Part shown: positions 30,695 to 47,234 of the stretch, one piece after another
Layout of the letters: the number at the start of each line of letters is the position of its first letter
How positions within the stretch are numbered: the first letter of the stretch is position 1
Source: Pyrinomonadaceae bacterium
GTDB lineage: Bacteria > Acidobacteriota > Blastocatellia > Pyrinomonadales > Pyrinomonadaceae
Length of the DNA stretch: 64,000 nucleotides
Assembly: GCA_965219305.1 (NCBI GenBank)
Contig: OZ244725.1
Coordinates: forward strand, 2,003,706 to 2,067,705
Direction of reading: 5' to 3'
The notes under the pieces: generated by a model
What the model was told of the DNA's origin: nothing
What the model saw: only the letters and a program-made list of their open reading frames with translations
The model's database searches: none
Translations under genes and position numbers: made by a program

Positions 30695-31348
30695 TCACAA
30701 CGAAAAATCGTAAACCAAATCGCCGTTCGTATATTTTTCGTCCTCAAAAATATGCGGATAATGTTTCTGCAATTCGCTCAAATAAAGTCCATACGGCAGA
30801 TCGTCGAACGCGCCGTAATCGTGGAGATATTCCATAAAAACATTGCCCGATTTATCAAATTCCTGAAAGATCGAATCCGCCGTTCCGTCAAATTCGAGCG
30901 GTTCGACCTTTAAGAATTCGCACAATTTCTTGTTAAACGCCGGAGTAGTTTTCAGCCATTTGCCGTCCAGAAAAAATTCCGCCGCGCCGTGGAAAACGAG
31001 ATAATTTTTCCGTAAAAGTTTTTCCAGTTTGTCGGTCGCAATATGATTTCTGACAATGTAAAAACTCAGACGGCTCGGAATATCAACTGCTCTTGCGACA
31101 GCCGCCAACAAAACCGCTTTTTCTACGCAGTAACCGCGATTTCGTGTCAAAAGATCGCTCGCCGTCAAACCTTTGCGGCTCAAATCCAAAATGTTCGGAT
31201 TATACTGAAAACCGTCGCGCACAGCGTAATAAAGTTTGACGGCTTTTTCGCGTTCACTTTTCGCGCCGGCAGAATTTCGCTCGGCGAATTCGCGCACGGA
31301 TTCGTTATCAAAATTCAAAAACTCAGTTGGTTGAAGATATTTTTTCAT
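30695..31348 (-). CDS. transglutaminase-like cysteine protease superfamily protein
   Basis: 217 aa. The catalytic Cys context (NRGYCVEKAVLLAAVARAVDIPSR) and a downstream His are present. Confidence 0.8.
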   Translation of the reverse strand: MKKYLQPTEFLNFDNESVREFAERNSAGAKSEREKAVKLYYAVRDGFQYNPNILDLSRKGLTASDLLTRNRGYCVEKAVLLAAVARAVDIPSRLSFYIVRNHIATDKLEKLLRKNYLVFHGAAEFFLDGKWLKTTPAFNKKLCEFLKVEPLEFDGTADSIFQEFDKSGNVFMEYLHDYGAFDDLPYGLYLSELQKHYPHIFEDEKYTNGDLVYDFSL

Positions 31349-31357
31349 TTTATTTTA

Positions 31358-31463
31358 GCCGCGGATGAACGCGGATAAACGCGGATTTAAGAAAATTTTT
31401 CAATTTCAAATGTAATGCAAAAGTAATCTTTCTTAAATCCGCGTTTTCCGCGAAATCCGCGGC
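31358..31463. repeat. modular palindromic element (CGCGGAT family)
   Basis: gccgcggatgaacgcggataaacgcggat … atccgcgttttccgcgaaatccgcggc. GCGGAT words start at 31361, 31371 and 31381. Confidence 0.9.
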
Positions 31464-31473
31464 TAAATATTTC

Positions 31474-32463
31474 TTATCCGTTCACCGATTTCATCATCTC
31501 TTCGGGATAACGCAAACCGGAAACTGCGTCTTTCGGGAAAACTTCTTCGATCTGTTTTAGATCATTTTCGCTCAATTCGACGTTTACCGATTCGGCATTT
31601 TCTTCGAGATATTTGCGGCGTTTCGTTCCCGGAATCGGCACGATGTCGTCGCCCTGCGCCAAAACCCAAGCCAACGCGAGCTGCGAAGCGGTCACGCCTT
31701 TTTCGGCGGCGATTTCTTCAACCTTTTTCACGAGTTCGAGATTTTTATCAAAATTTTCGCCCTGAAAACGCGGACTGTGGCGGCGATAATCGTTTTCGGG
31801 AATGTCTTCAAATTTTGTAAAACTGCCCGACAAAAATCCGCGTCCGAGAGGCGAATACGGCACGAAACCGATTCCGAGTTCGCGGCACGCCGCCAAAACA
31901 TCGTTGTCTTCCGGGTCGCGCGTCCACAAGGAATATTCCGACTGCAAAGCCGTGATCGGATGAACTTTCGACGCGCGGCGCAGAGTTTCCGCCGACGCTT
32001 CGCTCAATCCCAAATAGCGAACTTTTCCTTCCTTCACCAATTCCGACATTGCCAAAACCGTCTCTTCGATCGGCGTATTCGGATCAACGCGATGCTGGTA
32101 ATAAAGATCAATTGTTTCAATTCCCAAACGCTTCAAACTCGCTTCGCACGCCGATTTTACATATTCCGGTTTGCCGTTTATTCCGCGCACATTCGGATTA
32201 TTCCGGTCGCGTTCGATGGCGAATTTCGTCGCAATTACAAACTCGTCGCGCTTGCCCTTGATCGCTTTGCAGACGAGTTCCTCATTGTCGCCGTAACCAT
32301 ACATATCCGCCGTATCGAGAAAATTTACGCCGATCTCCAACGCGCGGTGAATCGTCTTAATTGATTCCTCATCGTTGCGGTCGCCGTAAAAATCCGACAT
32401 TCCCATACAGCCCAAACCGACGACTGAAACTTCCAAATCTTTGCCCAATATTCGTGTTTTCAT
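31474..32463 (-). CDS. aldo/keto reductase
   Basis: 329 aa. Has …LGCMGMS…FLDTADMYG… and …IPGTKR..YLEEN… AKR motifs. Confidence 0.9.
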
Positions 32464-32506
32464 ATTTTTTTAATGCTAATCGTTATAAACGAATGAATTT
32501 ATTTTA

Positions 32507-32649
32507 GCCGCGGATTTCGCGGAAAACGCGGATTAAATTAAAATCAAATCAATTTAAGTATAAAATTTTTCTTAAAATCCGCGTCATCCGCGTCATCCGC
32601 GGCTAAAATATCTTCTCTTTTTCGTGTTCTTTTCGTGTATGTTCGTGGC
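32507..32649. repeat. CGCGGAT-family palindromic element (32507-32603) followed by a solo CACGAA-family arm (32611-32649)
   Basis: The element is gccgcggatttcgcggaaaacgcggat … atccgcgtcatccgcgtcatccgcggc. It is followed by ttcgtgttcttttcgtgtatgttcgtggc. Confidence 0.85.
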
Positions 32650-32655
32650 TAAAAA

Positions 32656-33516
32656 CTAATTCGCCTGCGCCAATTCTTCTTCAGGAAAATCCGCGCCTTC
32701 CGAAGTTTCCGCCCAAGTGTCGAATTCTTCTTTTAAAGCTTCCAGTTTCAAATTCGCATTCTTAAATGCCGCTTTGCCCAAAAGCAGATTTTTCGGCGGA
32801 TTTTCCGCTTCGACGGCTTTGACAATCGCTTTCGCCGCGCGCACCGGATCGCCGGGCTGATTTCCGCTGTAACCGCGAATCGCCGCCTGATTTGCTCCGG
32901 CGGTTTCCGAATAATCGTCAATCGTTTTCGTCGCGTCATTCGCCGAACGCCCCGCCCAATCGGTGCGAAAACCCGACGGCTCGACGATTATCACGTCAAT
33001 TCCCAGAGGCTTTAATTCTTTCTGCAACGCTTCGGAAAAACCGTTGACGGCAAATTTTGTCGCGTTGTAATAACCGACTCCAGGAAATCCGACGAGTCCG
33101 CCGATGGATGAAATGTTGACGATCGCGCCGCTTTTCCGTTCTCGCATTTTCGGCAAAACCGCCCGCGTCATTTCCGCCAAACCCCAAAAATTCGTTTCAA
33201 ACATTGCGCGAACTTCTGTTTCATCAGATTCTTCAATCGCGCCGAAATAACCGAATCCGGCGTTGTTGACCAAAACGTCAATTTTGCCGAAATGCGCTTC
33301 CGCTTTCGCCACCGCATCGGCGACCTGCGCTTTGTCGTTGACATCCAAAGCAATTGCAAGCGCATTTTCCTTGTTGATCTCGACCAAATCCTGAATCTGC
33401 TGCGTATTTCGCGCCGTCACCGTGACTTGATAATCATTTTCCAACAAATATTTTGCCAATTCACGTCCGAATCCTGTCGAACAACCCGTTATAAACCAAA
33501 TTTTTTTATCACTCAT
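32656..33516 (-). CDS. SDR family oxidoreductase
   Basis: 286 aa with TGCSTGFG, NNAG and YNATK motifs. Confidence 0.9.
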   Translation of the reverse strand: MSDKKIWFITGCSTGFGRELAKYLLENDYQVTVTARNTQQIQDLVEINKENALAIALDVNDKAQVADAVAKAEAHFGKIDVLVNNAGFGYFGAIEESDETEVRAMFETNFWGLAEMTRAVLPKMRERKSGAIVNISSIGGLVGFPGVGYYNATKFAVNGFSEALQKELKPLGIDVIIVEPSGFRTDWAGRSANDATKTIDDYSETAGANQAAIRGYSGNQPGDPVRAAKAIVKAVEAENPPKNLLLGKAAFKNANLKLEALKEEFDTWAETSEGADFPEEELAQAN

Positions 33517-33565
33517 ATTGTTTACCTTTTTAACTCAAATTGCCGCTCAAATTTAATTTTATTTT

Positions 33566-33643
33566 GCCCGCGAATAACGCAAATCTTCATTGATAATTTC
33601 TGATTTTATTTTCAATTCGTGTTCTTTCGTGTTATTCGTGGGC
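33566..33643. repeat. modular palindromic element (CGCGAAT / CACGAAT words)
   Basis: gcccgcgaataacgc … gtgttattcgtgggc. The arm differences are G/A transitions. Confidence 0.75.
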
Positions 33644-33669
33644 AAAAAAAATATTTTCTTAACGGCAAA

Positions 33670-34221
33670 TTATTTTCCCCAATCTTTCTTCTTCAAAATA
33701 TAAACCCAACGGTCTTCGACAGCTTCGCCGTAAAATTCCGCTTCTGCATCGGAAAGCCTTTTCGCGCCGAGTTTTTCGATCGCTTTTTGCGAGCGCAGAT
33801 TGATTGACGCGACGTGAAAAATTACCGTGTCAACAAATCGAAAGGCGAAATCGAGCATCAAATTTTTCATTGCCCGATTGTAATTTCCGCCCCAATGATC
33901 GCGCGCTAAAAACGTGTAACCGATTGCCGCAAAACCTTTTTCTGCGTCGTAATCGTAAAACCGACTGCTCCCGATCGGCTCGTTCGTTTTCGCGTCCAAA
34001 ATGATAAATGCTCTTTTCGATTTCAATGCTTCGTCAAAAAACTTCTCGAAAACGTCACGTTTCCAGCGGTCGTTGCTCGGATGTTGTTCCCAGATTAAAG
34101 CATCGGACGCGACCGCGTAAACCCTTTCAAAGTCGTCAGTTTCGAGCGGAATTAATTTTACCAAATCATTTTCAACAGTTTCGATTTGAAAACTTTCCGC
34201 CGTTTTATTTGAATTATTCAT
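33670..34221 (-). CDS. GNAT family N-acetyltransferase
   Basis: About 183 aa from MNNSNK…. The fold pattern is RimJ/RimL-like. Overlaps the upstream gene end by 8 nt. Confidence 0.75.
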   Translation of the reverse strand: MNNSNKTAESFQIETVENDLVKLIPLETDDFERVYAVASDALIWEQHPSNDRWKRDVFEKFFDEALKSKRAFIILDAKTNEPIGSSRFYDYDAEKGFAAIGYTFLARDHWGGNYNRAMKNLMLDFAFRFVDTVIFHVASINLRSQKAIEKLGAKRLSDAEAEFYGEAVEDRWVYILKKKDWGK

Positions 34222-35128
34222 TTTCCAAAAATTTGCGGTAAGAACCATTTTCGATGTCTTCCAAAATCGTCTTGCCCGAAGAAATTTCCCACTTCAAATC
34301 GCGCTTCGCCTTTTCCGCGTCAAGCTGATTATTTACCGAGAGAAATTCAAACATCATCCCGAATTGTTCACGCGCCTTTTCCGACGGAATGCTTTTCGCC
34401 GGAACATTCAAAAGTCTGCTGACCGCTTCGCTGATTTCCTTAATCGAAACCGTTTCTGCCGAAACATTATACAAACCTTTCGCCGTGCCGGTTTCGAGCG
34501 CGAGCAGATACAAATCCGCCGCGTCTTCAACGTGAACCGCCGAAATTTTATTCTCGCCCGAACCCACGTAATTCGCCGATTTTTCCGCCTTTGCCTGTTC
34601 GATGACAAACGGCACAAACGAACTCGCGCCGCGCCCGTAAACGAAAAACGGCAGACGCAAAACTATCGAACGAATTCCTTTTGAAGATAATTGCACGCAA
34701 TCGCGTTCGGCTTCTCCGCGAGCGACGAATGACGAATTTTGATCGAACGGAAAATCTTCGTCCGCGACGGCATTTCGCGTGTTCCCCAAAACCGACGAAC
34801 CGGAAGTTACGATCAAAGGTTTATTCGTCCGCGCCAGAGCTTCGCCGAAAGTTTTTATCACATCACGTTCCAATTTCACCGAATCTGCAAAATTCTGCGG
34901 ATCAAAATTGAACGCCGTATGAATCACTGCGTCCGCATTCTGCGCCGCGCTTTTCAAAACATCAAAATCGTGCAGTTCGCCGCGCACGACCTCGATATTT
35001 TTCGCTTCCAATTTCGCCGCCGATTCATCATTTCGCGCCAGAGCCGAAATTTTGTAACCTTTACTTTTCAATCTTTCGGCGACGACCGAACCGATATATC
35101 CCGTTGCACCCGTTAAAAATATTTTCAT
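34214..35128 (-). CDS. NAD(P)-binding atypical SDR / NmrA-epimerase-like protein
   Basis: 304 aa with N-terminal MKIFLTGATGYIGS. Confidence 0.85.
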   Translation of the reverse strand: MKIFLTGATGYIGSVVAERLKSKGYKISALARNDESAAKLEAKNIEVVRGELHDFDVLKSAAQNADAVIHTAFNFDPQNFADSVKLERDVIKTFGEALARTNKPLIVTSGSSVLGNTRNAVADEDFPFDQNSSFVARGEAERDCVQLSSKGIRSIVLRLPFFVYGRGASSFVPFVIEQAKAEKSANYVGSGENKISAVHVEDAADLYLLALETGTAKGLYNVSAETVSIKEISEAVSRLLNVPAKSIPSEKAREQFGMMFEFLSVNNQLDAEKAKRDLKWEISSGKTILEDIENGSYRKFLENE

Positions 35129-35144
35129 TTACTAACTCTTAAAA

Positions 35145-36218
35145 TCACTTCGCCGCATTTGCTTCTTCCAAAAACGGGTAATCTATATAACCTTTTTCGC
35201 CGCCCTGATAAAAAGTTGATTCGTCCGGCTCATTTAATGCCGCGTCCAACTTGAAACGCTTCGGCAGATCGGGATTTGCGAGAAAAAGTTTCCCGTAAAC
35301 AATCGCGTCCGCGCCTTTTTCTTCCAGTAATTTTTCGCCCGAATCTTTATCAAAACCGACTCCGGCAAAATAAATTCCTTCATAGATCGGACGCAAAACC
35401 GGATGCCAATTTTTGTTCTGATCGAACGTTCCGAGGTGCAGATAAGCCAAGTCGCGTTTGTTTAATCCTTTGACAACATAATCATAAAGTTCCGCCGCAT
35501 CCGATTCGTGAATGTCGTTAAATTCTCCGCCCGGCGAAAGTCGTATTCCCGTTTTTTCGTTGCCGATTTCCGCGATCATCGCGTCCAAAACTTCAAACAA
35601 AAATCTTGCCCGATTTTCCACCGAACCGCCGTATTCATCATCGCGTTTGTTCGTGTTGTCCGACAAAAATTGCTGAACCAGATAACCGTTCGCCCCGTGC
35701 AGTTCAACGCCGTCAAATCCCGCATCAACTGCATTTTTCGCCGCATTTGCAAAATCTTTCACCGTTGATTTTATTTCTTCCGTCGTTATTTCACGCGGTT
35801 CGACAAAATCCTTCATTCCTTCCATCGTAAAATTTTGCCCGTTCGCTTTGACGGCTGACGGCGCGACCGGATTTTGATTGTCCGGCAGAAAATCCGGCAA
35901 CGCGATTCGTCCAGTGTGAAAAATCTGCATAAAGATTTTTCCGCTTTTTTCGTGAACTGCATCAGCAATTTTGCGCCAGCTTTCGATCTGCTCTTCCGTA
36001 TAAATTCCCGGCGTTTTTATATAACCTTTCGCCATCGCCGACACATTTACAGCTTCCGTAATTATCAATCCCGCCGACGCTCTCTGCGCGTAATATTCGA
36101 CCGCATAATCCGGCTGAACGCCGTCTTCATCCGCACGGCTGCGCGTCATCGGCGCGTAAACAATTCTGTTTTCCAACTCTAAATTTCCTATTTTTAACTT
36201 ATCAAATAATTCGTTCAT
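35145..36218 (-). CDS. Old Yellow Enzyme family alkene reductase (NemA/OPR-like)
   Basis: 357 aa with …APMTR.RA…, …QI.H.GR…, …GFDGVE.H.ANGYL..QFL…. Confidence 0.9.
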   Translation of the reverse strand: MNELFDKLKIGNLELENRIVYAPMTRSRADEDGVQPDYAVEYYAQRASAGLIITEAVNVSAMAKGYIKTPGIYTEEQIESWRKIADAVHEKSGKIFMQIFHTGRIALPDFLPDNQNPVAPSAVKANGQNFTMEGMKDFVEPREITTEEIKSTVKDFANAAKNAVDAGFDGVELHGANGYLVQQFLSDNTNKRDDEYGGSVENRARFLFEVLDAMIAEIGNEKTGIRLSPGGEFNDIHESDAAELYDYVVKGLNKRDLAYLHLGTFDQNKNWHPVLRPIYEGIYFAGVGFDKDSGEKLLEEKGADAIVYGKLFLANPDLPKRFKLDAALNEPDESTFYQGGEKGYIDYPFLEEANAAK

Positions 36219-36246
36219 AATTTTTCACTCTTGCCTTTTTCAAATT

Positions 36247-36289
36247 TCTTTCTCTTTTATTCGTATTTATTCGCGTTTATTCGCGCACA
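36247..36289. repeat. solo arm of the palindromic element family (CGCGAAT-type words)
   Basis: ttattcgtatttattcgcgtttattcgcgcac. No partner arm is present. It abuts the stop of the gene at 36299. Confidence 0.6.
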
Positions 36290-36298
36290 AAACATCTT

Positions 36299-36934
36299 CT
36301 AATAACTCGAATACAAAACGCCATCAATTTCCTCAAATTTCAGATCGCGGTTGTAAATCGCCGAACCCGGAGCTTGCGTTTTGCCGCCGTCGCTCAAATT
36401 TCCTGTATCGTAAGCCGCAAAACCGATCTCTTCGATCAACGCCGCAACTTTTTTCTTCGCGTCTGCATCATCGCCGCAGAGAAAAATCACGCGCCGTTCG
36501 TCAATCGGCAAATCCTTGTTTCCCTGCGTTTTCAAATGTTCTGACCAAATCGTATTAAACGCTTTAACGACGATTGCGCCTTTTAAATGCTCGGCAAGCA
36601 GTTCGCTCGAAGTAATTTTATTTGCATCAATATCTCCAAATTCGCCGTCGCGGTCGGGATAATAATTATTGGAATCAATCACGATTTTCCCTTTAAAAGC
36701 ATCTGCCGGAAGTTCTTTATATTTGCCGAACGGAATCGAAACAAAAACGATCTCGCCAAAATCCGCCGCTTCTTCAACCGTCACGGCTTTCGCATTTCCG
36801 CCGATTTCCGCAACTTGTTCCGCCAAAGTCTCCGGTCCGCGCGAATTAGCAATCGCAATTTCGTGTCCCTTTTCCGCAAACAATTTCGCCGCATTGCCGC
36901 CGATATTTCCCGCTCCGATAATTCCTATTTTCAT
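36299..36934 (-). CDS. NADPH-dependent F420-reductase-like NAD(P)-binding oxidoreductase
   Basis: 211 aa with MKIGIIGAGNIGGN Rossmann N-terminus (F420_oxidored-type). Confidence 0.7.
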   Translation of the reverse strand: MKIGIIGAGNIGGNAAKLFAEKGHEIAIANSRGPETLAEQVAEIGGNAKAVTVEEAADFGEIVFVSIPFGKYKELPADAFKGKIVIDSNNYYPDRDGEFGDIDANKITSSELLAEHLKGAIVVKAFNTIWSEHLKTQGNKDLPIDERRVIFLCGDDADAKKKVAALIEEIGFAAYDTGNLSDGGKTQAPGSAIYNRDLKFEEIDGVLYSSY

Positions 36935-36949
36935 AATTTTTTATTTTTA

Positions 36950-37134
36950 GCCACGAACAAACACGAAATGGACACGAACAAAAGAAATTTAGCCACAGAT
37001 GGACATAGATAAAAACCGGATAAAACCAAATTAGATTTATCTTCCTCATCTCCTAAAAATCTGTGTATATCTGTGTTCATCCGTGGTTAAATATTCTTCT
37101 CTTTTTTCGTGTTCTTTTCGTGTCTGTTCGTGGC
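36950..37134. repeat. nested palindromic element: outer CACGAA-family arms enclosing an inner CACAGAT-family element (36992-37087)
   Basis: Outer arms: gccacgaacaaacacgaaatggacacgaac … ttcgtgttcttttcgtgtctgttcgtggc. Inner arms: gccacagatggacatagataaaaaccggat … atctgtgtatatctgtgttcatccgtggt. Confidence 0.9.
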
Positions 37135-37919
37135 TAATCTCCTAATTTTTCACCCAAAACAACCTTTCGCATCTTCCGCAATTGATGCAGCCAACGGTCG
37201 TAATTCTCAGCTTTGTTGACAATATATTCACCGACTTCAACGTGCGGCAGAATCAAGAATTTTTCTTCATCCAGAGTTCTCACAACCGTCTCCGCACATT
37301 CTTCAACCGTGATCGAATCGGGAATCAAAAACGAATTGTTTCCATACTTAGCATCTTCGATCAAACGCGTCCGAACGCCTTGCGGACACAGACACGAAAC
37401 GTAAATTTTGTCGCCGAATTCAATCGCAAAACTCTCCGCCATCGCCACCGCCGCGTGTTTCGTCACCGAATACGGAGCCGACAAAGGATGCGTTAAAAGT
37501 CCCGCCGCCGAAGCCGTAATCATAAATCCGCCGCCGCCGTTTTCGATCATCTGCGGAAAAATCGCCCGCGCCAGATAAACGTGCGACAAAACATTGACTT
37601 TGTAAACCAAATCCCAAATCTTGTCCGAAACTTCCAGCGACCCTTCCGCACCGCCGATGCCCGCATTCGACGCGACAAAATCAATCCGCCCGCATTCGTC
37701 TAAAATTCCTTTGACGACCGTTTTACAATTTTCTTCGTCCGCGACGTTTAATTTAACTGCTTTCCCATTCACCGATTCCGCAACTTTTTCCGCATTTTCA
37801 AATTCCAGATCGGCAACAAAAATCTTCGCCGCGCCTTCCGCGTGAAACCGCTCGCACAAAGCCTTCCCAATCCCGTTCGCACTACCCGTGACGAGAATTA
37901 TTTTGTCTTTTAGATTCAT
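37134..37919 (-). CDS. SDR family oxidoreductase
   Basis: The start is set at MNLKDKIILVTGSANGIG. The track N-terminal extension [11 protein letters not shown] is translation of the repeat arm. The stop TAG lies at the repeat terminus. Confidence 0.85.
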   Translation of the reverse strand: MNLKDKIILVTGSANGIGKALCERFHAEGAAKIFVADLEFENAEKVAESVNGKAVKLNVADEENCKTVVKGILDECGRIDFVASNAGIGGAEGSLEVSDKIWDLVYKVNVLSHVYLARAIFPQMIENGGGGFMITASAAGLLTHPLSAPYSVTKHAAVAMAESFAIEFGDKIYVSCLCPQGVRTRLIEDAKYGNNSFLIPDSITVEECAETVVRTLDEEKFLILPHVEVGEYIVNKAENYDRWLHQLRKMRKVVLGEKLGD

Positions 37920-37927
37920 AATTTTTT

Positions 37928-38119
37928 GCCACGAACAAACACGAAATTTCACGAAACAGAAAAATTAGCCACAGATTCACTCAGATGAACACGAATGAAA
38001 ACCGGATGTAATTATTTCAAAAATCTGTCCCTTATCTTTCTTAATCTGTGTCTATCTGTGTAAATCTGTGGCTAAACTTCTTCGTTCTTTTCCGTGTATT
38101 TTTTGTGTTCGTTCGTGGC
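37928..38119. repeat. nested palindromic element (outer CACGAA arms; inner CACAGAT element 37968-38072)
   Basis: gccacgaacaaacacgaaatttcacgaa … [gccacagattcactcagatgaacacgaat … atctgtgtctatctgtgtaaatctgtggc] … gtgttcgttcgtggc. Confidence 0.9.
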
Positions 38120-39078
38120 TAATTTCCCACCGTCAACACGACTTTGCCCGTCGTTTTTCTGCCTTCAATAGCTTCGTGCGCTTCTTTCACATTTTCTAAA
38201 GGAAACTCCGTCACTTGAATTTTCAAACGTCCCGCGCCTAAATGTTCGAGTAATTCTTTCGTAAATTTGATACGATTTTCGACCGATTCGTTCATTAGCC
38301 AATAACCGCGAATCGTGTGATTTTTGTGCATCAAACTCAAGACCGAAACTTTGAAATCTTCACCCGAAGCCGAGCCGTAAACCCACATCGTGCCGTGTTT
38401 TGCCAGCACTTTCAGATTTTTCGCCACGATGTCGCCGCCGACCATTTCGATCAGCCAGTCAACGCCTTTGCCGTCGGTCGCTTTTAATACTTCGTCCGTC
38501 CAATCGTCTTCCGAATAATTGATCGCAAAATCCGCGCCGAGATCGGCGACCATCTGCAATTTCGCCTCGCTCGAAGCCGTGCCGATGACCTTCAAACCTT
38601 TCTGTTTCGCAAGTTGCACGAGCAAAGTCCCGACGCCGCCCGCCGCTGCGTGAATCAAAATCGTTTGCCCTGATTTCGTCTGGTTCAAAAGCCCGAGCGC
38701 GGTCAAGCCTTGCACAAGCAGCGCATTTGATTCGCCAAAACCGAGTTCGTCGGGAATCGGCATCGTCAGCGCGGCTTTCGCCGTCGCGTATTCGGCATAA
38801 CCGCCGCTCGAAGTCGTCGCCAAAACGCGCTGTCCGACTTTCAAATTCGAGACATTTTCGCCCAAAATTTCAATCGTCCCCGCCGCTTCATAACCGAGCG
38901 TCAGCGGCAATTCCGGCTGCGTCAAATAATTGCCCTCACGCATCATCGTGTCGGCATAATTAATTCCCGCCGCCGCGACTTTGATCAAAACCTCGTCCGC
39001 CTTCGGAGCCGGTTTTTCGATTTCCTCAAGCGACAATTTATCCGTTCCGCCAAGTTCATTTAATCTGATTGCTTTCAT
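38119..39078 (-). CDS. MDR-family NADPH:quinone oxidoreductase / zinc-type alcohol dehydrogenase-like
   Basis: 319 aa with …GINYADTMMREG.Y… and AAAGGVG nucleotide-binding motif. Confidence 0.9.
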   Translation of the reverse strand: MKAIRLNELGGTDKLSLEEIEKPAPKADEVLIKVAAAGINYADTMMREGNYLTQPELPLTLGYEAAGTIEILGENVSNLKVGQRVLATTSSGGYAEYATAKAALTMPIPDELGFGESNALLVQGLTALGLLNQTKSGQTILIHAAAGGVGTLLVQLAKQKGLKVIGTASSEAKLQMVADLGADFAINYSEDDWTDEVLKATDGKGVDWLIEMVGGDIVAKNLKVLAKHGTMWVYGSASGEDFKVSVLSLMHKNHTIRGYWLMNESVENRIKFTKELLEHLGAGRLKIQVTEFPLENVKEAHEAIEGRKTTGKVVLTVGN

Positions 39079-39156
39079 AATTTTTTAGTTTTTACCAAAG
39101 ATTTCTCGCAGTTAGATACAGATATTTTCTGCTCTGCTAATTTTCTCTTATTTCAA

Positions 39157-39790
39157 TTGCCACTAGCTTCAGCTAGTGGACAAATTTAATGAATTCTCGC
39201 GGCTATAGCCGAACTTCCGAAAAAAAAATTCCTTATCGCTTTAGCCTAATTTTCTTTGTCTTTAAATTTTTCAAATCCCGCGCGTTCCAAAAATTCTTCA
39301 AACTCATCATCGAAACTTTTCGTTTTATGATGTTCTTCCTGATTGGCAATATATTTTCTGGCATTTTCCAGCATTGATTCACAAACACCAACTGCAAAAT
39401 ATTCTTCTTGCCAGCCGAATTTAGTTTTGCACAAATTGTTTTTGTTACTCCAAAATGACGATTCGCCTTTGATTAACTGCATAATTTTCTCCAAAGTCTG
39501 ATCTGTTCCCAAAGAAATCAGACAATGGACGTGATCGGTATAACCGTTTATAAAATCAATATGAATGCCTTTTTCACGCGCATTTTCCCGAATATGTTTG
39601 AAAACTTTTTGTCTGATGTCCTCTGTCAAAAAAGGAACGCGGTTCTTGGTTGACCAAACAAAATGTATCCAAACTTTGACGAATGACATAAGTTTTATAA
39701 AGGCTTAAGCCAAAAGGAAATTATTTTTCTGAAATTCGGCTAAAGCCTTTTTTTTTATTCACAATTACCACTAGCTGAAGCTAGTGGCAA
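39157..39790. mobile_element. RAYT / IS200-like Y1 transposase unit flanked by inverted REP-type hairpins
   Basis: The 25-nt sequence aattgccactagcttcagctagtgg is at 39155-39179. Its exact reverse complement is at 39768-39792. Each forms the hairpin ccactagc-NNNN-gctagtgg. A second inverted pair (ggctatagccgaa / ttcggctaaagcc) lies just inside. Confidence 0.8.
39246..39689 (-). CDS. REP-associated tyrosine transposase (IS200/IS605 TnpA-like, Y1 HUH)
   Basis: 147 aa. Has …HFVWSTKNR.PFL…, the HUH motif (DHVHCLIS), and a C-terminal region typical of Y1_Tnp. Confidence 0.85.
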   Translation of the reverse strand: MSFVKVWIHFVWSTKNRVPFLTEDIRQKVFKHIRENAREKGIHIDFINGYTDHVHCLISLGTDQTLEKIMQLIKGESSFWSNKNNLCKTKFGWQEEYFAVGVCESMLENARKYIANQEEHHKTKSFDDEFEEFLERAGFEKFKDKEN

Positions 39791-39817
39791 TTTAAAGATC
39801 TTTTTGTCCATTTAAAA

Positions 39818-40351
39818 TTAAGCATTTTCCAACGCTTCGAGCAAATTTTCGTAATCGAACGAACCGTTAAAACGAACGCCGTTGATGAAAAAACTCGGCG
39901 TTCCGTTCACGCCGCTTTCGACTCCGCTCATAAAATCCGCTTGAACTTTTTCCTCGAATTTGCCGCTTTCTAAATCTTCGGCGAATTTGTCCGCGTCAAG
40001 CCCGATTTTTTCCGCGTAAGATTTCAAACTTTCGTCGTCGAGCGCGTTTTGATTTTCAAAAAGCGCGTCGTGCATTTCCCAAAACTTTCCGTCCTGCGCG
40101 GCAATTTCCGACGCTTCCGCCGCGTGTTCGGCGTGCGGATGCGATTGCTGTAACGGAAATTTGCGAAACACGAAACGCAAATCATTGCCCATTTCCTTTT
40201 GAATTTTCTTGACGATTTCATACGCTCTGCCGCAATGCGGACATTCGTAGTCGCCGTATTCGACGAGCGTAACTCGTGCGTTTTCAGAACCTTCCGCGTG
40301 ATCGTCCGTGCCGACGGGAACTGTTAATTCAGGATTTTCATTATTTGCCAT
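39818..40351 (-). CDS. DsbA-family thioredoxin-fold protein
   Basis: 177 aa with the CPHC active site and …GTPSFFING…. Confidence 0.85.
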   Translation of the reverse strand: MANNENPELTVPVGTDDHAEGSENARVTLVEYGDYECPHCGRAYEIVKKIQKEMGNDLRFVFRKFPLQQSHPHAEHAAEASEIAAQDGKFWEMHDALFENQNALDDESLKSYAEKIGLDADKFAEDLESGKFEEKVQADFMSGVESGVNGTPSFFINGVRFNGSFDYENLLEALENA

Positions 40352-40859
40352 TTTCGTTTTCTCCGTTTTCTTCGCTCTCGATTTCCTTGAGCGTTTTCAA
40401 AATCTGATCCGCGCCCGGATTTACCCCAATCGGCGAAACGTAGCTGTAACGAATCACGCCGTCTTTATCAATGACAAACAGCGCGCGTTCGCTAAATCCG
40501 TCTTCGTCGCGGTAAACGCCGTATTTTTTCGCCACTTCGCCTTTCGGCTCGAAATCCGAAAGCAGCATCATTTTGTAGCCGCGATCTTTGCGAAACGCCT
40601 CGTGCGAAAATTCGCTGTCAACCGAAACACCGAAAAGCTCCGCATTTTGCTTTTCAAACACCGGCAAAAGCTCGTTGTAAAGCGCAAGCTGATCGCCGCA
40701 AACCGCGCTCCAATCCGCCGGATAAAACGCCAAAACGACATTTTTCCCGCGCATATTTTCCAAAGTAAACGTCGGCTCTTCATCGCCCGCCGCTTCAACC
40801 GCGCGACACGGCAAAGTAAAATTCGGTGCTTTCTCGCCCGCTTTTAATAATTCACTCAT
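40341..40859 (-). CDS. peroxiredoxin (AhpC/TSA family)
   Basis: 172 aa with FYPADWSAVC peroxidatic Cys context. Confidence 0.85.
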   Translation of the reverse strand: MSELLKAGEKAPNFTLPCRAVEAAGDEEPTFTLENMRGKNVVLAFYPADWSAVCGDQLALYNELLPVFEKQNAELFGVSVDSEFSHEAFRKDRGYKMMLLSDFEPKGEVAKKYGVYRDEDGFSERALFVIDKDGVIRYSYVSPIGVNPGADQILKTLKEIESEENGENENGK

Positions 40860-40892
40860 AATTTAATTTCCCCTTGTTAATTGTAATTTTTT

Positions 40893-41087
40893 GCCACGAA
40901 TAAACACGAAAAATTTTAAGAAGTTTTAGCCACAGATTTTCACAGATTCATACGGATAAAATACAGATAAATTCAAATAAATAACTTTAAAATCTGTCTT
41001 ATCCTGCTTCAAAAATCTGTGTTTATCTGTGTTCATCTGTGGCTAATTTTTCTTTTTTTTTCGTGCTTTTTCGTGTCTGTTCGTGGC
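40893..41087. repeat. nested palindromic element (outer CACGAA arms; inner CACAGAT element 40929-41043)
   Basis: gccacgaataaacacgaaaa … [gccacagattttcacagattcatacggat … atctgtgtttatctgtgttcatctgtggc] … ttcgtgctttttcgtgtctgttcgtggc. Confidence 0.9.
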
Positions 41088-42112
41088 TAACTTCCTTTCG
41101 CTGTCGCAACATTTTCGTTAAAAAGTTCTGCGACGATTTCATAAGAACGCAGACGTTTTTCCTGATCGAAAACCATCGCGTTAACCATAATTTCGTCCGC
41201 TTTTGATTCTTCCAGAAACGCTTCCAATTTCCGTTTGACCGTTTCCTTGCTTCCGATGATCGAACCGCCCGTGCGCGAATTTACCAGAGTTTTTTCCTGC
41301 GCGTTCCAGATCGTGTTCATATCTTCGACCGGCGGCGGGATTTTGCCCGGTCTGCCGCGCACCAGATTTAGAAAAGACTGATACTGCGAAGTCGCTAAAA
41401 ATTCGGCTTCTTCGTCGGTTTCCGCCGCGATCACATTCAAACAAACCATCGCGTGCGGCTTTTGCAAATCGTCCGAAGGCTGAAAAGTTTTCCGGTAAAG
41501 TTCCAGAGACGGCAAAGTATGTTCGGGTGAAAAATGCGCCGCGAATGCGAACGGCAAACCCAAAACTCCGGCAAGATGCGCCGAAAAACCGCTCGAACTC
41601 AAAAGCCAGATCGGAACATTCAAACCCGCGCCCGGAACCGCCTGAACCTTTTGATTTGCCACCGTTTCGCGGAAAAAGAATCGCAATTCTTCAAGCTGTT
41701 CGGGAAATTCTTCGCCGTCATTGTTCAAACTCCGACGCAACGCCAATGTCGCCGGACGATCAGTTCCGGGAGCGCGTCCCAAACCGAGATCAATTCGATT
41801 CGGATAAAGCGATTCGAGCGTCCCGAACTGCTCGGCGATCACAATCGGCGCGTGATTCGACAACATAATTCCGCCCGAACCGACGCGGATCGTCGAAGTA
41901 TTTCCCGCGACAAACCCGATCACCACCGAAGTCGCCGCGCTCGCAATGCCGACCATATTGTGATGCTCGGCAAGCCAAAATCTCTGATAACCCAAACTTT
42001 CAGCCCGCTGCGCCAAACTCAAAGTCCGCTTAAACGCATCGCTCACATTTTCGCCTTCAAAAACGGGCGATAAATCTAAAACTGAAAATGGAATTTTTGT
42101 AATATTGCTCAT
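41087..42112 (-). CDS. LLM-class (luciferase-like) flavin-dependent oxidoreductase
   Basis: The start is set at [16 protein letters not shown]…. …[12 protein letters not shown]… is typical of the YhbW-like group. The stop TAG is at the repeat terminus. Confidence 0.85.
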
Positions 42113-42130
42113 AATTTCCCCTTGTTTTTT

Positions 42131-42472
42131 GCCACGAACAAACACGAAAGTTCACGAAAGTACAAGAAAGACTTTAAATAAAAAAGTTTTTATTCTGTTG
42201 CTTCAATTTCTGTTTCAAGAACATAAATATCGCCACCTTTATCTGAATCCAATTCAGCCAAATAAGTTATTGGTTCAAGTGAAATCAATGAAATTATACT
42301 TGCTTGATTTCCTGAGTAATCACCTTTAACAATTTGAATGCAATCGTTGTATCCGAATTTTACACCCTCGAGTTGCTCAAGTTCATACCAAAGTTTATTT
42401 GCTTCATCTAAATCCATAAATAGTAAAAAATTTCCTTATTCTTTTTGTGTCCTTTTCGTGTCTGTTCGTGGC
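42131..42472. repeat. CACGAA-family arm pair enclosing a 75-aa ORF
   Basis: The left arm is gccacgaacaaacacgaaagttcacgaaag (42131-). The right arm is gtgtccttttcgtgtctgttcgtggc (-42472). Confidence 0.8.
42190..42417 (-). CDS. hypothetical acidic 75-aa protein located inside a palindromic element
   Basis: ORF only. No motif recognised. AT-rich. Confidence 0.45.
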   Translation of the reverse strand: MDLDEANKLWYELEQLEGVKFGYNDCIQIVKGDYSGNQASIISLISLEPITYLAELDSDKGGDIYVLETEIEATE

Positions 42473-42480
42473 TAAATTCC

Positions 42481-43569
42481 TTACGCCGATTTTGCCTTTC
42501 GCAGATCAATTGCGCGCCCGTATTGTTTCGGCACATATCCCAAATCTTTACCCAATTCCTTCGCCGCCGTGAACGGAAAATACGGTTCGCGCAAAAATTC
42601 CCGCGCCATCAAAATCGCGTCGGCTTCGCCGTTTTGCAAAATTTCTTCGGCTTGTTTTGCGTCCGTAATCATTCCGACCGCGCCCGTCGGAATTTCAGCT
42701 TGTTTGCGAATTTCCGCCGCGAAAGAAACCTGATAATTCGGTGCGACGGGAATCTTCACGTCCGGCACATTTCCGCCCGTCGAAACGTCAATCAGGTCAA
42801 TTCCGATCTTTTTGAGTTCCTTGCAAAACTCGATTGACTGCGCTAAATCCCAACCCTTTTCTGTCCAATCGGTCGCCGAAATGCGAACGAAAACCGGAAG
42901 ATTTTCCGGCACGGTTTCGCGCACTTTTTTTGCAACTTCCAAAGGAAAACGCATCCGATTTTCCAGACTTCCGCCGTATTCGTCGTCGCGTTTGTTGGAA
43001 AGCGGCGATAAAAATTCGTGAAATAAATAACCGTGCGCGGCGTGAATTTCAATCACTTCAAAACCTGCATTTAACGCAAATTTCGTCGCCGCGACAAAAT
43101 CGTTTGTCGATTTTTCAATGTCGTCTTTCGACATTTCGCGCGGCAACGGATAATCGTCCGCAAACTTTTCCGCCGTCGGCGCGACCGTTTCCCAACCGCC
43201 GTTTTCGATCTCGACTTCTTTCCCACCGTTCCAAGGTTCTGCTGTTGAAGCTTTTCGTCCGGCGTGCGCGAGCTGAATTCCCGCAATTGCGCCGTATTCC
43301 TTGATAAATTTCGTGATTCTCTTATAACTTTCGGCGTGCGCGTCCGACCAAATTCCAGCGTCTGACGGAGAAATTCTGCCTTTGGGCGAAACGGCGGTCG
43401 CTTCCTGAATAATCAAACCCGCGCCGCCGACCGCGCGGCTTCCAAGATGAACGAGATGCCAATCCGTCGGCATTCCTTCCTCGCTCGAATATTGACACAT
43501 CGGCGAAACCCAAATTCGGTTGCGAAAATCGATTTCTCTTAATTTATAACTTTCAAATAATTTGCTCAT
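42481..43569 (-). CDS. Old Yellow Enzyme family NADPH dehydrogenase (YqjM/NamA-like)
   Basis: 362 aa with …SPMCQY…, …QL.HAGRK…, …FEVIEIHAAHGYL..EFLSP…. Confidence 0.9.
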   Translation of the reverse strand: MSKLFESYKLREIDFRNRIWVSPMCQYSSEEGMPTDWHLVHLGSRAVGGAGLIIQEATAVSPKGRISPSDAGIWSDAHAESYKRITKFIKEYGAIAGIQLAHAGRKASTAEPWNGGKEVEIENGGWETVAPTAEKFADDYPLPREMSKDDIEKSTNDFVAATKFALNAGFEVIEIHAAHGYLFHEFLSPLSNKRDDEYGGSLENRMRFPLEVAKKVRETVPENLPVFVRISATDWTEKGWDLAQSIEFCKELKKIGIDLIDVSTGGNVPDVKIPVAPNYQVSFAAEIRKQAEIPTGAVGMITDAKQAEEILQNGEADAILMAREFLREPYFPFTAAKELGKDLGYVPKQYGRAIDLRKAKSA

Positions 43570-43586
43570 AAATTTCCCTTGATCTT

Positions 43587-43823
43587 CTACTGATTTTTTA
43601 TTTCGCCATCATCCAAAATGGCTTCGACCGGACAACACATCATTGCTTCTCTGCACTTTTTTTCTTCTTCTGGTGTTTCAGGTTGCTTCGCAAAATATAC
43701 GCCAAAATCTTCCGTGTCAGGTTTTATATTGTCAGGCGCGTAATATATACAAGCCTCACTGCAAGTGCAGACATCATAATCAATGTAGTATTTGCCTTTT
43801 ACATTCAAAGGATGAATTTTCAT
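43587..43823 (-). CDS. small ferredoxin
   Basis: 78 aa with CTCSEAC…AP and a C-terminal CCPVEAI cluster-binding pattern. Confidence 0.65.
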   Translation of the reverse strand: MKIHPLNVKGKYYIDYDVCTCSEACIYYAPDNIKPDTEDFGVYFAKQPETPEEEKKCREAMMCCPVEAILDDGEIKNQ

Positions 43824-43827
43824 TTTT

Positions 43828-43855
43828 TTCGCGTCCTTTCGCGTTTTTCGCGGGC
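43828..43855. repeat. solo arm of the palindromic element family
   Basis: ttcgcgtcctttcgcgtttttcgcgggc. It lies next to the stop of the gene at 43864. Confidence 0.55.
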
Positions 43856-43863
43856 AAAAATTC

Positions 43864-44757
43864 TTACGTCATTTGCTTCCAATCTTCGCCGCCGACTTCG
43901 TGCCAACGTTGATGAATTGCGGCAAATTCTTCGCCCGACAAATTTCCTTCCGAAATATATTTCGCGTTTTCGCTCCAGCGTCCCGGTTTTGTCGTGCCGA
44001 CGATCATCGTGTCAATTCCAGGAATTGTCATCGTAAAACGCAACGCCGTCGCAATTGATTCTTCCAGACTTTTGCCCAAAAATTCGTATTTCAATTTCTG
44101 AATTCTGTCCCAATATTCGTGATGATAAGAATCCGACGGTTTCGCGTCGTGCCGCCAAACGGCATTTGCAATCGGACGTTTGGCAATTACGCCGACATTT
44201 TTCTCTTGCGCTGTTTTTATCACACTGTCAATCGCCGCTTGATCGGCAATCGAAACGGAAGTTTGCAAACTGTCGAAAACGTCCATTTCGAGCGCAGTTT
44301 TCGCGTCGTCGTTGTCACCTGAATAACCGATGTAACGCGTGTAGCCTTTTTCCTGCGCTCTCTGCAACGCTTCGATTGCTTCGCCGCGATTTAAGATTTC
44401 GCTGTCGCAACTGTGCAATTGCGCGATGTCGAGATAGTCGGTTTTCAAATTTCGCAAGCTGTTTTCAATTGTTTCTAAAATTCCTTTTTTCGACCAGTCG
44501 TAGCGCGTAAAACCGTCGAGCGCGCCGCATTTCGTCAGCAGATAAAATGAATTGCGCCGTTTGCCGACCGTTTCGCCGATCAATTTTTCGCTTTCCCAAT
44601 ACGCCGCCGCCGTGTCAATGACATTCAAACTGGCATCCAAAGCCGCGTTCAAAAGCTCGCCGACACTTTCGCGCGTCACCTCGCGCCCGATCTCCGCGCC
44701 GCCGAAGCCGAGAACGGAAAATTCCATATCAGTTTTGCCAAATTTTCTTTTTTCCAT
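43864..44757 (-). CDS. aldo/keto reductase
   Basis: 297 aa with the AKR N-terminus MEKRKFGKTDMEFSVLGFGG… and …DTAAAY…. Confidence 0.85.
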   Translation of the reverse strand: MEKRKFGKTDMEFSVLGFGGAEIGREVTRESVGELLNAALDASLNVIDTAAAYWESEKLIGETVGKRRNSFYLLTKCGALDGFTRYDWSKKGILETIENSLRNLKTDYLDIAQLHSCDSEILNRGEAIEALQRAQEKGYTRYIGYSGDNDDAKTALEMDVFDSLQTSVSIADQAAIDSVIKTAQEKNVGVIAKRPIANAVWRHDAKPSDSYHHEYWDRIQKLKYEFLGKSLEESIATALRFTMTIPGIDTMIVGTTKPGRWSENAKYISEGNLSGEEFAAIHQRWHEVGGEDWKQMT

Positions 44758-44766
44758 AAAATTTTT

Positions 44767-45154
44767 AACCGCAGATTTTCGCAGATGGACGCAGAGAATT
44801 TATTTAGATTTTTCTTTGCTCAATTCCTTGATGTCGTTTTCAAATTCTGCAAAATCTGCTTCGTGTTTCATGATTGCTTCTTCAATTGTCGAACAAGCTT
44901 CTGCTGACATTTCTTCAAAATTTTCGCTCGACAAACTTTCGATAAAATACATTTCTAAATTTTCTCGATAAACTTTGTCTGAATCCTCATAAATATAATC
45001 TTTTAACTGCACAAAAAACTTTCCGTCAGGCAAAATTTCAAAACACCGATAACGTGCCACAGTTCTTTCATCAACACTTTTCCAAATATTTATTTCTTTG
45101 AAAAATTTATCTGATTTCATAAAAATCTGCGTTTATCCGCGTTTATCTGCGGTT
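44767..45154. repeat. CGCAGAT-family arm pair enclosing a 106-aa ORF
   Basis: The left arm is aaccgcagattttcgcagatggacgcagag. The right arm is atctgcgtttatccgcgtttatctgcggtt. Confidence 0.8.
44800..45120 (-). CDS. hypothetical 106-aa protein located inside a palindromic element
   Basis: ORF only. The C-terminus is acidic. Confidence 0.45.
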   Translation of the reverse strand: MKSDKFFKEINIWKSVDERTVARYRCFEILPDGKFFVQLKDYIYEDSDKVYRENLEMYFIESLSSENFEEMSAEACSTIEEAIMKHEADFAEFENDIKELSKEKSK

Positions 45155-45167
45155 AATTTCCCACTTT

Positions 45168-45647
45168 TTACAAATCGAAAATAAAACAAGTCGTCGTCCC
45201 GTGTGCATAAATTTTTCCGTTTTCGTCAATCAACTTGCCTTCCGCCGAGCCGATTTGTTTTCCGACATTTACGATCTTGCCGACGGCTCTTAAAGTTCCG
45301 GTTTTCTCGAAGATCGGGCGCACGAAATTTACTTTTAGTTCGACGCTTGTCGCGGCTTTTCCCGCTTTTAAGGTCGAATGAATCGCGCACGCCATTGCCG
45401 AATCGAGCAGAGTTGCGATAAATCCGCCGTGAATCGTTCCCATCGGATTGTAAAATTTCGCGTGCGGTCTGCCTTCAAAAATGACGCTCCCGTTTTCGAC
45501 TTCCGCCAGACCGAAATCAAAAGATTCGCCGATCGGCGGCGCGGGAAATTCTCCCGTGACCATTTTGCGGAAAATCTCGATTGCGTCTTCAGTTTTCCAA
45601 ACTTCAGCCGGAATAAGTCCGAATTTTATTTTTTCTGTTGCTGTCAT
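45168..45647 (-). CDS. PaaI-family hotdog-fold thioesterase
   Basis: 159 aa with …GTIHGGFIATLLDSAM…. Confidence 0.85.
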   Translation of the reverse strand: MTATEKIKFGLIPAEVWKTEDAIEIFRKMVTGEFPAPPIGESFDFGLAEVENGSVIFEGRPHAKFYNPMGTIHGGFIATLLDSAMACAIHSTLKAGKAATSVELKVNFVRPIFEKTGTLRAVGKIVNVGKQIGSAEGKLIDENGKIYAHGTTTCFIFDL

Positions 45648-45861
45648 TAATCGTAATCAAAAAAACTCGTTAAAAAAACAGAAACCGCCGCGATTGTTTT
45701 CGGCGATTTCAAAATACGGACAAACTAATACATTCTTTCCATCTGTTTCTACTTTACTACAATCGAAACTCATTTTCTAAAATGCGGAAAATCGGGTTTG
45801 TGCGGAAATTTAGAAACTTTCCCTGTATTTTGCAAGGTTTTGTGTGGCAAAATAAAATTGT

Positions 45862-46554: not shown

Positions 46555-46560
46555 CAAAAT

Positions 46561-47030: not shown

Positions 47031-47234
47031 ATGCCGAATCGTGAAAGAAAAAATATCCGCGCCGGATTAGAAGTGGCGATCGTTCAAAAACAAGATCAGC
47101 GAACGGGAAAACAAACTGTCGGAATCGTCAAAGATTTGCTGACAAATTCAAATTTTCACCCGCACGGAATAAAAGTTCGTCTGACGGACGGGAAAGTCGG
47201 AAGAGTTCAGGAAATTTTAAGTCAAGAAAATTAA
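47031..47234 (+). CDS. YwbE family protein
   Basis: 67 aa with …QDQRTGK.T.GIVKD.LTNS..HPHGIKVRL.DG.VGRVQEI. Confidence 0.75.
   Translation: MPNRERKNIRAGLEVAIVQKQDQRTGKQTVGIVKDLLTNSNFHPHGIKVRLTDGKVGRVQEILSQEN

Follow-up and report, generated by a model that had tools for sequence, protein, structure and literature searches.

Nested palindromic word repeats at gene junctions of a Pyrinomonadaceae bacterium, probably members of one superfamily of intergenic repeats with a cargo-accepting loop

The window analysed here is a stretch of 64,000 nucleotides of contig OZ244725.1 from a soil bacterium of the Pyrinomonadaceae (assembly GCA_965219305.1, positions 2,003,706 to 2,067,705 of the forward strand). 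A first-pass annotation had described three of its intergenic gaps as two-level structures, in which outer arms built from the word CACGAA enclose a complete palindrome with arms built from the word CACAGAT. On re-reading, all three were exact (nested units 1 to 3, Table 1). In the outer arm GCC comes first and CACGAA words then repeat every 10 nt, for example GCCACGAACAAACACGAAATGGACACGAAC, and its reverse complement ends GTTCGTGGC; the inner palindromes have arms of the same build made from CACAGAT words. The pattern CACGAA-N4-CACGAA, with at most one mismatch, was matched 15 times in the window, compared with a mean of 0.89 and a maximum of 4 in 100 dinucleotide shuffles, and 14 of the 15 matches fell inside the elements. 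Structure prediction of the full unit, which had been proposed for both nucleic acids, gave one continuous long hairpin for each nested unit, at -44.8 kcal/mol as DNA (z -10.6) and -78.6 kcal/mol as sense-strand RNA (z -10.5). The genes beside the units encode enzymes of unrelated families, namely an F420-type oxidoreductase, a short-chain dehydrogenase/reductase (SDR), a zinc-dependent alcohol dehydrogenase (Zn-ADH), a peroxiredoxin (Prx) and a luciferase-like monooxygenase (LLM), indicating, as had been supposed, that the nested copies are not segmental duplications. A fourth locus had been taken for a CGCGGAT-type element next to a solo CACGAA arm. The element and its neighbouring arm were found (32507-32649), but one recognisable word of a left outer arm, AAACGAA, is left at 32487-32493, and from its sequence the locus reads as a nested unit with a decayed left arm and not as a solo arm.

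Table 1. Word-array elements and the transposase gene of the window, with GxxExxY loci of related genomes
Feature	Position	Strand	Description
Nested unit 1	36950-37134		outer CACGAA arms 36950-36979 and 37106-37134; inner CACAGAT element 36992-37087
Nested unit 2	37928-38119		outer arms 37928-37957 and 38092-38119; inner CACAGAT element 37968-38072
Nested unit 3	40893-41087		outer arms 40893-40913 (third word decayed) and 41060-41087; inner CACAGAT element 40929-41043
Nested unit 4	32487-32649		CGCGGAT-word element 32507-32603, then the usual linker and CACGAA right arm 32621-32649
ORF75 unit	42131-42472		CACGAA arms 42131-42170 and 42444-42472, enclosing a 75-aa ORF (ORF75, 42190-42417, minus strand) in loop position
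ORF106 unit	44768-45153		CGCAGAT-word arms 44768-44795 and 45126-45153, enclosing a 106-aa ORF (ORF106, 44800-45120, minus strand)
Simple CGCAGAT-word element	47234-47303		70 bp, between convergent DUF2196 and FeoB genes
Simple CGCGGAT-word element, un-nested	31358-31463		directly 3' of the stop codon of the AKR gene
Simple CGCGGAT-word element	9868-9986		downstream of gene 10003-10383
Degenerate simple element, CACGAA type	33566-33643		GCCCGCGAAT... / ...ATTCGTGGGC
Solo three-word CGCGAA arm	43828-43855	minus	directly upstream of the 78-aa ferredoxin gene 43587-43823
IS200-family Y1 transposase gene	39246-39689	minus	147 aa; region 39151-39796 bracketed by two inverted-repeat levels
GxxExxY loci of related genomes	L017 4166-4619; L102 4303-4751; L112 2566-3035; L004 3235-3833; L040; L089; L101; L066; L029; L200-L213		GxxExxY (TIGR04256, PDDEXK_3) genes

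Further elements of the window were found by an inverted-repeat scan and direct reading (Table 1), and related loci collected from other genomes are given below by L numbers. All families follow a common plan, with a terminus TTA[GA]CC, three (sometimes four) 6-7-nt words per arm at a 10-nt period and an AT-rich loop, and they differ in the word only, which is CACGAA, CACAGAT, CGCGGAT or CGCAGAT in the window and ACATAG or ACAGGGAT elsewhere. The CACAGAT, CGCGGAT and CGCAGAT families are referred to as GAT-type. Arms are 29-35 nt long and elements measure 70-225 bp, with no transposase gene in them. The arms are direct word repeats without self-complementarity, and word positions were near-identical between arms of different species. 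At the spacer positions (20-22 and 30-32), left and right arms were complementary in 27-37% of cases within an element, compared with 31-42% between elements, and G.U-compatible mismatches showed no sense-strand bias (31 sense, 28 antisense). Because the words are conserved while the spacers are not complementary between arms, recognition by a protein is suggested over pure base pairing. The words themselves appear to be the selected feature, most simply as putative phased binding sites on one face of the helix. Identity was 0.79 for orthologous arms, 0.81 for random arm pairs, 0.75 for the flanks (neighbouring genes) and 0.46 for the loops; the data suggest that the copies are held at consensus by selection or gene conversion and that selection for RNA pairing alone is insufficient. 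Departures from the regular arm were also seen. An element in L037 (3982-4091) has six tandem CACGAATAT words in its left arm and three in its right, suggesting that word number changes by slippage, and L114 (640-900), from Phycisphaerae of the Planctomycetota, carries eight arms as a direct tandem array upstream of a gene.

A search with the arm pattern GCCACGAAYANACACGAAA returned at least 119 loci, almost all from Pyrinomonadaceae/Pyrinomonadales metagenome-assembled genomes (MAGs) of the Acidobacteriota and a few from other phyla, and gave no match among viral contigs. A census of nested against simple copies had been proposed in the first-pass annotation; in the collected loci simple CACGAA elements formed the majority, and nests recurred in many Pyrinomonadaceae genomes. 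Most of the 81 paired CACGAA elements were simple hairpins of 69-76 bp with AT-rich, unconserved loops, and the loop held a CACAGAT element in the 160-230-bp tail of the size distribution and an open reading frame (ORF) at 330-470 bp. Thirty GAT-type elements were scored in turn, and 14 stood alone, 13 lay fully inside CACGAA arms and 3 had an outer arm on one side only. Further nests were present in loci retrieved through their proteins, independently of the arms (L138, L220/L221, L222, L223 and L214). By our own count, CACGAA arms lay outside at about 24 distinct sites in Acidobacteriota and the order was reversed at none, a split that is extremely unlikely under symmetric insertion. The same word vocabulary (CACGAA, CACAGAT, CACGGAT and others, with GCC or ACC termini) was also seen in MAGs of Planctomycetota, Nitrospirota, Methylobacter, Pirellulales and Chitinophagaceae (L114 640-900, L104 2575-2680, L090, L035/L116, L026 and L119 4250-4750).

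The comparison of orthologous sites showed that loop content turns over beneath persistent outer arms. At site P/Q, the same outer arms belong to a simple element in L004, enclose a CACAGAT element in L111 and enclose a 108-aa ORF (ORF108) in L025. The HppD-HgmA site has a simple element in L099, a GxxExxY gene in L040, L102 and L200-L213, and a full element followed by the gene and an extra right arm in L089. A third site is simple in L022 and holds a GxxExxY gene in L017. At the HemY-HemB site, ORF129 is disrupted by an insertion sequence (IS) in L018, and L112 and L223 carry triple nests of the form CACGAA[CACAGAT[ORF]]. Between the genes for Old Yellow Enzyme (OYE) and LLM, the window has ORF75 in CACGAA arms, L078 has a CACAGAT element in CACGAA arms and L219 has ORF75 in CACAGAT arms. 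Judged by the OYE-LLM comparison, loss of the ORF from triple nests seems to have left some of the empty nests behind, and several nests that look empty may be ORF-less derivatives of ORF-carrying ones. Small-gene cargo in the loop is a feature that goes beyond the first-pass account.

The cargo itself belongs to a few families. Genes of the GxxExxY family (Table 1) lay between word arms in 9 of 9 cases among arm-ascertained loci and in all 4 inspected from a protein-ascertained set, and the arms around these 13 genes were of the CACGAA type in 12 and of the CACAGAT type in 1. At three GxxExxY sites, the orthologous position in another species was a simple element. In the literature searched, no published description was found of an association between GxxExxY genes and such arms, nor of the elements themselves. 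The ORF75 family occurs in three unrelated neighbourhoods, which are OYE-LLM, HemE-HemN (L220/L221, a full triple nest) and PP2C-pectinesterase. No arms were seen at the PP2C-pectinesterase copy, and all other ORF75 and ORF106 contexts were bracketed by arms. The ORF106 family was found at three sites (thioesterase to aldo-keto reductase (AKR), HemY-HemB and MFS-LLM). Its arms are of the CGCAGAT type in the window and L224, and L223 and L222 have it in CACAGAT arms that themselves lie within CACGAA-type arms. ORF75 and ORF106 are small and acidic and have no Pfam match; an AlphaFold model of ORF75 from a 9-sequence alignment reached a pLDDT of 39. In general, GAT-type arms surround the ORF and are in turn surrounded by CACGAA arms; GxxExxY genes are usually enclosed by CACGAA arms with no GAT-type layer between. 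Several loci combine their arms irregularly. In the hybrid element of L071 (4935-5020), the left arm is of the CACAGAT family and the right arm of the CACGAA family. In L089 (3460-4020), L066 and probably L029, whose left arm was not checked, a full CACGAA element is followed by a GxxExxY gene and then a right arm, and L101 has a full CACGAA element followed by a GxxExxY gene, the contig edge ending before any further arm. Irregular arm combinations such as those of L071 and L089 are as expected from unequal recombination between arms.

We then compared occupied junctions with their orthologues. With the SDR gene between two nested units as query, most relatives (60-70% amino acid identity) were without an element at either end. 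The junction from SDR to the F420 oxidoreductase, where the window has the 185-bp nested unit 1, is empty in L121/L122 and reduced to the stop codon, 4 nt and ATG. The site of the ORF106 unit is empty in L133 and L146. The junction 3' of the AKR gene holds a CGCGGAT element in the window (31358), a CACAGAT element in L162 and a ACAGGGAT-word element in L160, and is empty in L121, L124, L128 and L149. A free-standing CACAGAT element in L133 corresponds to an empty junction in L156, and the L036 orthologue of the 9868 site holds an ACATAG-word element instead. As judged from these sequence comparisons, the empty junctions indicate that the elements are insertions, which are present or absent at orthologous junctions and turn over. 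The otherwise empty AKR 3' junction of L128/L149 carries a decayed word-arm remnant, TTTTCGATTTTTCGATTT; because arm remnants survive there, some empty sites may once have been occupied.

The position of the copies relative to genes was strongly biased. Their neighbourhoods were convergent in 17 cases, co-directional in 32 and divergent in 2. In about 75 of 83 cases the stop codon was no more than 16 nt away from the terminus, and in 26 the TAG of the terminus was the stop itself; downstream starts were mostly 9-15 nt beyond the other terminus. The elements have a strong preference for the few bases after stop codons. In units 1 to 3, the TAG in the right terminus (GGCTAA, or TTAGCC on the opposite strand) is the stop codon of the SDR, Zn-ADH and luciferase-like gene, respectively. 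TA is present on both sides of most copies; it is self-complementary and continues the inverted repeat TTAGCC...GGCTAA. Two differences in protein ends were observed at such junctions. The C-terminus of the window SDR is about 8 residues shorter than that of its L121 orthologue, and in L018 (1802-3253) the HemY ORF continues across the left arm, which lengthens it by a tail of 10 residues (LATNKHEKDTK).

We consider it the probable explanation, at odds of roughly two to one, that the nested loci are copies, one inside the other, of two members of a single superfamily of non-coding, hairpin-forming intergenic repeats, similar to miniature transposable elements with inverted repeats (MITEs) and repetitive extragenic palindromic (REP) sequences, with the loop serving as a cargo slot. 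CACGAA elements would insert immediately behind stop codons at the tight junctions of operons, and their loop would then offer a slot for GAT-type elements, empty or with a small ORF, which would bring their own purine-rich linker AAGAGAAGAAATT, and also for GxxExxY genes. The empty nests of the window could have arisen by insertion of a CACAGAT element into the loop or by loss of the ORF from an outer[inner[ORF]inner]outer unit. The phased words would be binding sites for a trans-acting transposase or recombinase that moves the units and places them into AT-rich sites of the T/TA/A type, as offered by operon junctions and CACGAA loops. Homologous recombination between the ~30-bp arms would homogenise the copies and swap loop cargo, and such arm-mediated recombination would account for the hybrid arms, the extra half-arms and the missing clear target duplication.

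Several observations weigh against this explanation. The empty-site comparisons were made across species that are only 70-85% identical, so that insertion boundaries are not base-precise, and no unambiguous target-site duplication was found, the flanking TA being equally readable as part of the inverted repeat. The loci of the CACGAA census were selected for a CACGAA arm, which inflates the nested share of the inner families. The fixed order of outer and inner element claimed in the first-pass annotation held throughout the acidobacterial sites but is not universal, as CACGAA arms lie inside CACAGAT arms in L119 (4250-4750 of a 4.2-Mb contig), from Chitinophagaceae of another phylum. Across 1.4 Mb of related loci, no transposase or recombinase was found whose ends are word arms. 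A single transposase, an IS4/IS701-like one in L018, lay within CACGAA arms; it was considered as an autonomous partner and rejected as a secondary IS insertion into the loop ORF. Finally, the conserved junction between inner and outer parts and the occurrence of whole triple nests at unrelated sites fit movement of whole units equally well.

The first-pass annotation had left a choice between a composite unit mobilised as a whole and insertion directed to the loop of the outer element, and our data gave support to both, loop turnover at orthologous sites standing on one side and the conserved junction and whole units at unrelated sites on the other. In the composite explanation, a single mobile unit made up of the outer arms, the linkers and the inner element (ORF-bearing or not) is copied entire to new sites, and simple and free-standing elements are deletion derivatives. 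A multiple alignment had too few informative sites for the proposed phylogenies of inner and outer arms, in whose place orthologous sites were compared, but it showed conservation of the right junction, AAATTTCTTCTCTTTTT-CGTG, among nested copies from many genomes, which was not seen for the loops of simple elements. One side of the junction reads AAGAGAAGAAATT; on the other, the complement of this sequence is joined to the third outer word. Complete units of the forms outer[inner[ORF75]inner]outer and outer[inner[ORF106]inner]outer were present at sites unrelated to each other, and the window itself has no simple CACGAA element and all 3 of its CACAGAT elements nested. However, free-standing GAT-type elements that follow stop codons have this purine-rich linker beside them too, so that it belongs to the inner element, orthologous loops under the same outer arms alternate between simple, ORF-filled and element-filled states, one CACGAA element (unit 4) hosts a CGCGGAT-type inner element, and nested elements are greatly outnumbered by simple ones. 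We therefore regard copying of the whole as the less likely course, although it is the strongest of the competitors. Insertion into the loop agrees with the occurrence of the inner families on their own (14 of 30) and with the excess of simple over nested CACGAA elements. Because the purine-rich linker belongs to the inner element and loop content varies at orthologous sites, the results favour a course in which the inner element, carrying an ORF or not, entered an outer loop that was already in place. The GxxExxY nuclease is the most consistent passenger and, speculatively, a candidate mobiliser. A far-reaching extension, which we hold to be rather improbable, is an integron-independent docking system in which CACGAA loops at operon junctions would accept, exchange and lose small cassettes (ORF75, ORF102 or ORF106 in GAT-type arms, and GxxExxY PD-(D/E)XK genes) by means of a word-reading enzyme, nuclease-triggered gene conversion between ~30-bp arms, or both. 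Its arm vocabulary would be common to Acidobacteriota, Planctomycetota, Bacteroidota, Nitrospirota and Gammaproteobacteria, and GxxExxY would act as a homing or mobilising nuclease.

Two further explanations were weighed against the same data. The elements could be RNA structures selected by the host, in which the transcribed hairpin acts as an RNase III site, a 3'-end stabiliser or a bidirectional terminator and nesting lengthens the stem. Such effects on mRNA are known for REP of E. coli and Correia elements of Neisseria. In its favour, the stability of the hairpins is very high (z about -10.5), gene 3' ends account for nearly all copies and divergent gaps for only 2 of 51, the copy in L067 between convergent genes has the order A-tract, hairpin, T-tract, and the words are kept across species while the loops drift. 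We nevertheless find this explanation unlikely, since the spacer positions of the arms are not complementary, G.U pairs show no bias on the transcribed strand (31 vs 28), UAAAAAU and not a U-tract follows the hairpin in co-directional contexts, hybrid arms (L071) and direct tandem arrays (L114) cannot pair, and discrete word families and presence/absence polymorphism are left unexplained. An Rfam search gave no match at the gathering threshold and only generic miRNA-hairpin matches below it. The remaining proposal, which we regard as very improbable, is an integron-like array whose palindromes are attC-type sites and whose cassettes are the co-oriented redox genes at 30.7-47.3 kb. It would agree with one element per gene junction, with the small ORFs without known function, with the co-orientation of all genes, whose stops lie in or next to an element and whose starts follow 8-15 nt after it, and with the variable gene order among relatives. 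Yet the 64 kb contain no integrase, and Pfam scans of the ORFs at 22-58 kb showed no recombinase except the IS200 Y1. The R''/R' core sites (RYYYAAC/GTTRRRY) are absent from the CACAGAT, CGCGGAT and CGCAGAT families and only loosely mimicked by GAAC/GTTC in the CACGAA family, the elements occur singly across many genomes, also between convergent housekeeping genes, and the ORFs lie inside a palindrome and not between palindromes. Membership of the elements among integron attC sites or cassettes was rejected for want of core sites and an integrase.

The elements fall in the known class of small intergenic palindromic repeats, and what is unusual in them is the set of word "dialects", the directional stacking and the gene-carrying loops. 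They share with MITEs terminal inverted repeats, small size, dispersed copies, the lack of a transposase gene and presence/absence polymorphism. More closely, they resemble the Correia and RUP MITEs in size (70-200 bp), in terminal inverted repeats, in non-coding simple copies, in many intergenic copies, in TA at both borders, in a hairpin in transcripts and in presence or absence at orthologous sites. They differ in that no autonomous partner with the same ends was found in the 1.4 Mb of related loci, that TA is not demonstrable as a duplication, and that several dialects on one architecture, directional nesting and unrelated small ORFs in the loops are present. As in BOX repeats and NIMEs, for which a role as portable homology in recombination has been suggested, the build is modular, with outer modules that pair and inner ones of variable number or type. 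The likeness seen is one of build. BOX modules are blocks of 45-59 bp and not phased words, and ORF cargo is not a known feature of BOX repeats or NIMEs. ORF-bearing intervening sequences of 23S rRNA also have a long stem of terminal inverted repeats around a small ORF, whose family has expanded in the same phyla, and from NCBIfam descriptions we take GxxExxY/four-helix-bundle proteins to be linked to such sequences; the hairpins here lie in mRNA operon junctions and not in rRNA helices.

The likeness to REP sequences is one of position. As with REP and the bacterial interspersed mosaic elements (BIMEs) of E. coli, short extragenic palindromes are placed at gene 3' ends or between cistrons, are rare in divergent promoter regions and form mosaics of repeat modules. 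The arms here are, in contrast, three direct words phased at 10 nt, with no tag and no RAYT. Membership of REP, REPIN or BIME was rejected, as the arms are not palindromic, have no GTAG/CGTC tag and have no cognate RAYT flanked by the repeats; a REP unit is itself an imperfect palindrome of 20-40 nt. Other mobile elements of the IS1397 type insert specifically into the centre of E. coli REP palindromes; the loop insert here is a repeat of the same superfamily or a small ORF and not an IS3-family IS. GTAG-tagged REPs have been reported to supply TAG stops to flanking ORFs (PMC3733652), as the termini of the present elements do. The same work described TIRtrons and IS200-IS605 PATEs, in which Y1 genes are flanked by inverted repeats that are also dispersed in Acidobacteria (PMC3733652).

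The window contains a Y1 gene of its own (Table 1). Its outer repeats are hairpins CCACTAGCT..AGCTAGTGG at 39158-39179 and 39768-39790, its inner repeats form a 47-nt inverted repeat at 39201-39247 and 39701-39747, and the layout of the locus is TIRtron-like. The protein scored 67.5 bits against NF033573 (IS200 family, cut-off 55) and 34.3 bits against the RAYT model (cut-off 80), and an exact-protein look-up returned no record. The hairpins of the locus recur in L103 (420-610), in a derivative of about 180 bp that lacks the gene, and a second Y1 gene, in L203, has GTAG-type ends. A Y1 or RAYT protein as mobiliser of the word arms was rejected, because neither Y1 gene of the data set is flanked by word arms and the hairpins of the window Y1 are unrelated to them; in this the word-array elements are unlike TIRtrons. 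Short decayed word-arm remnants (CGCAGTTAGATACAGAT...TCTGCTCTGCTAA) were read at 39093-39140 of the window, in an otherwise empty junction.

Short repeats between genes are commonly dismissed as junk or read as simple terminators; here the dialects of one architecture stack in a fixed order and bracket small genes. If the arms are recognition or homology sites for the exchange of cargo, the elements would represent a new way of shuffling tiny genes within the operons of uncultured soil bacteria, and would give the very large, uncharacterised GxxExxY (PDDEXK_3) nuclease family its first genomic context. Even if they are only selfish, they supply stop codons to about one third of adjacent genes, alter protein C-termini and set cistrons apart by hairpins of 70-200 bp, and they are likely to trouble gene callers and assemblers in Pyrinomonadaceae MAGs.

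Nearly all elements of the window lie within a 17-kb run of co-oriented minus-strand redox genes (AKR, SDR, OYE, luciferase-like, peroxiredoxin, DsbA, Zn-ADH and GNAT). Scans of 31-48 kb for promoter and terminator consensus sequences showed no enrichment over shuffles, the long hairpins exceeding the loop limit of the scan. The gene order of this redox/detoxification cluster (30695-47025; AKR, SDR, OYE, LLM, Prx, DsbA, Zn-ADH, NmrA-like and GNAT) differed in every related genome (L120-L166). In these relatives, SDR lies 3' of an LLM, OYE or NmrA-like gene, always at a very tight junction, and small genes appear between conserved neighbours, as exemplified by a 4-OT tautomerase gene in L133. 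The ferredoxin gene of the window starts 4 nt past the solo CGCGAA arm, in loop position but without a second arm on its other side, and the orthologous AKR-OYE junction of L078 carries a nested CACGAA[CACAGAT] unit and no ferredoxin gene.

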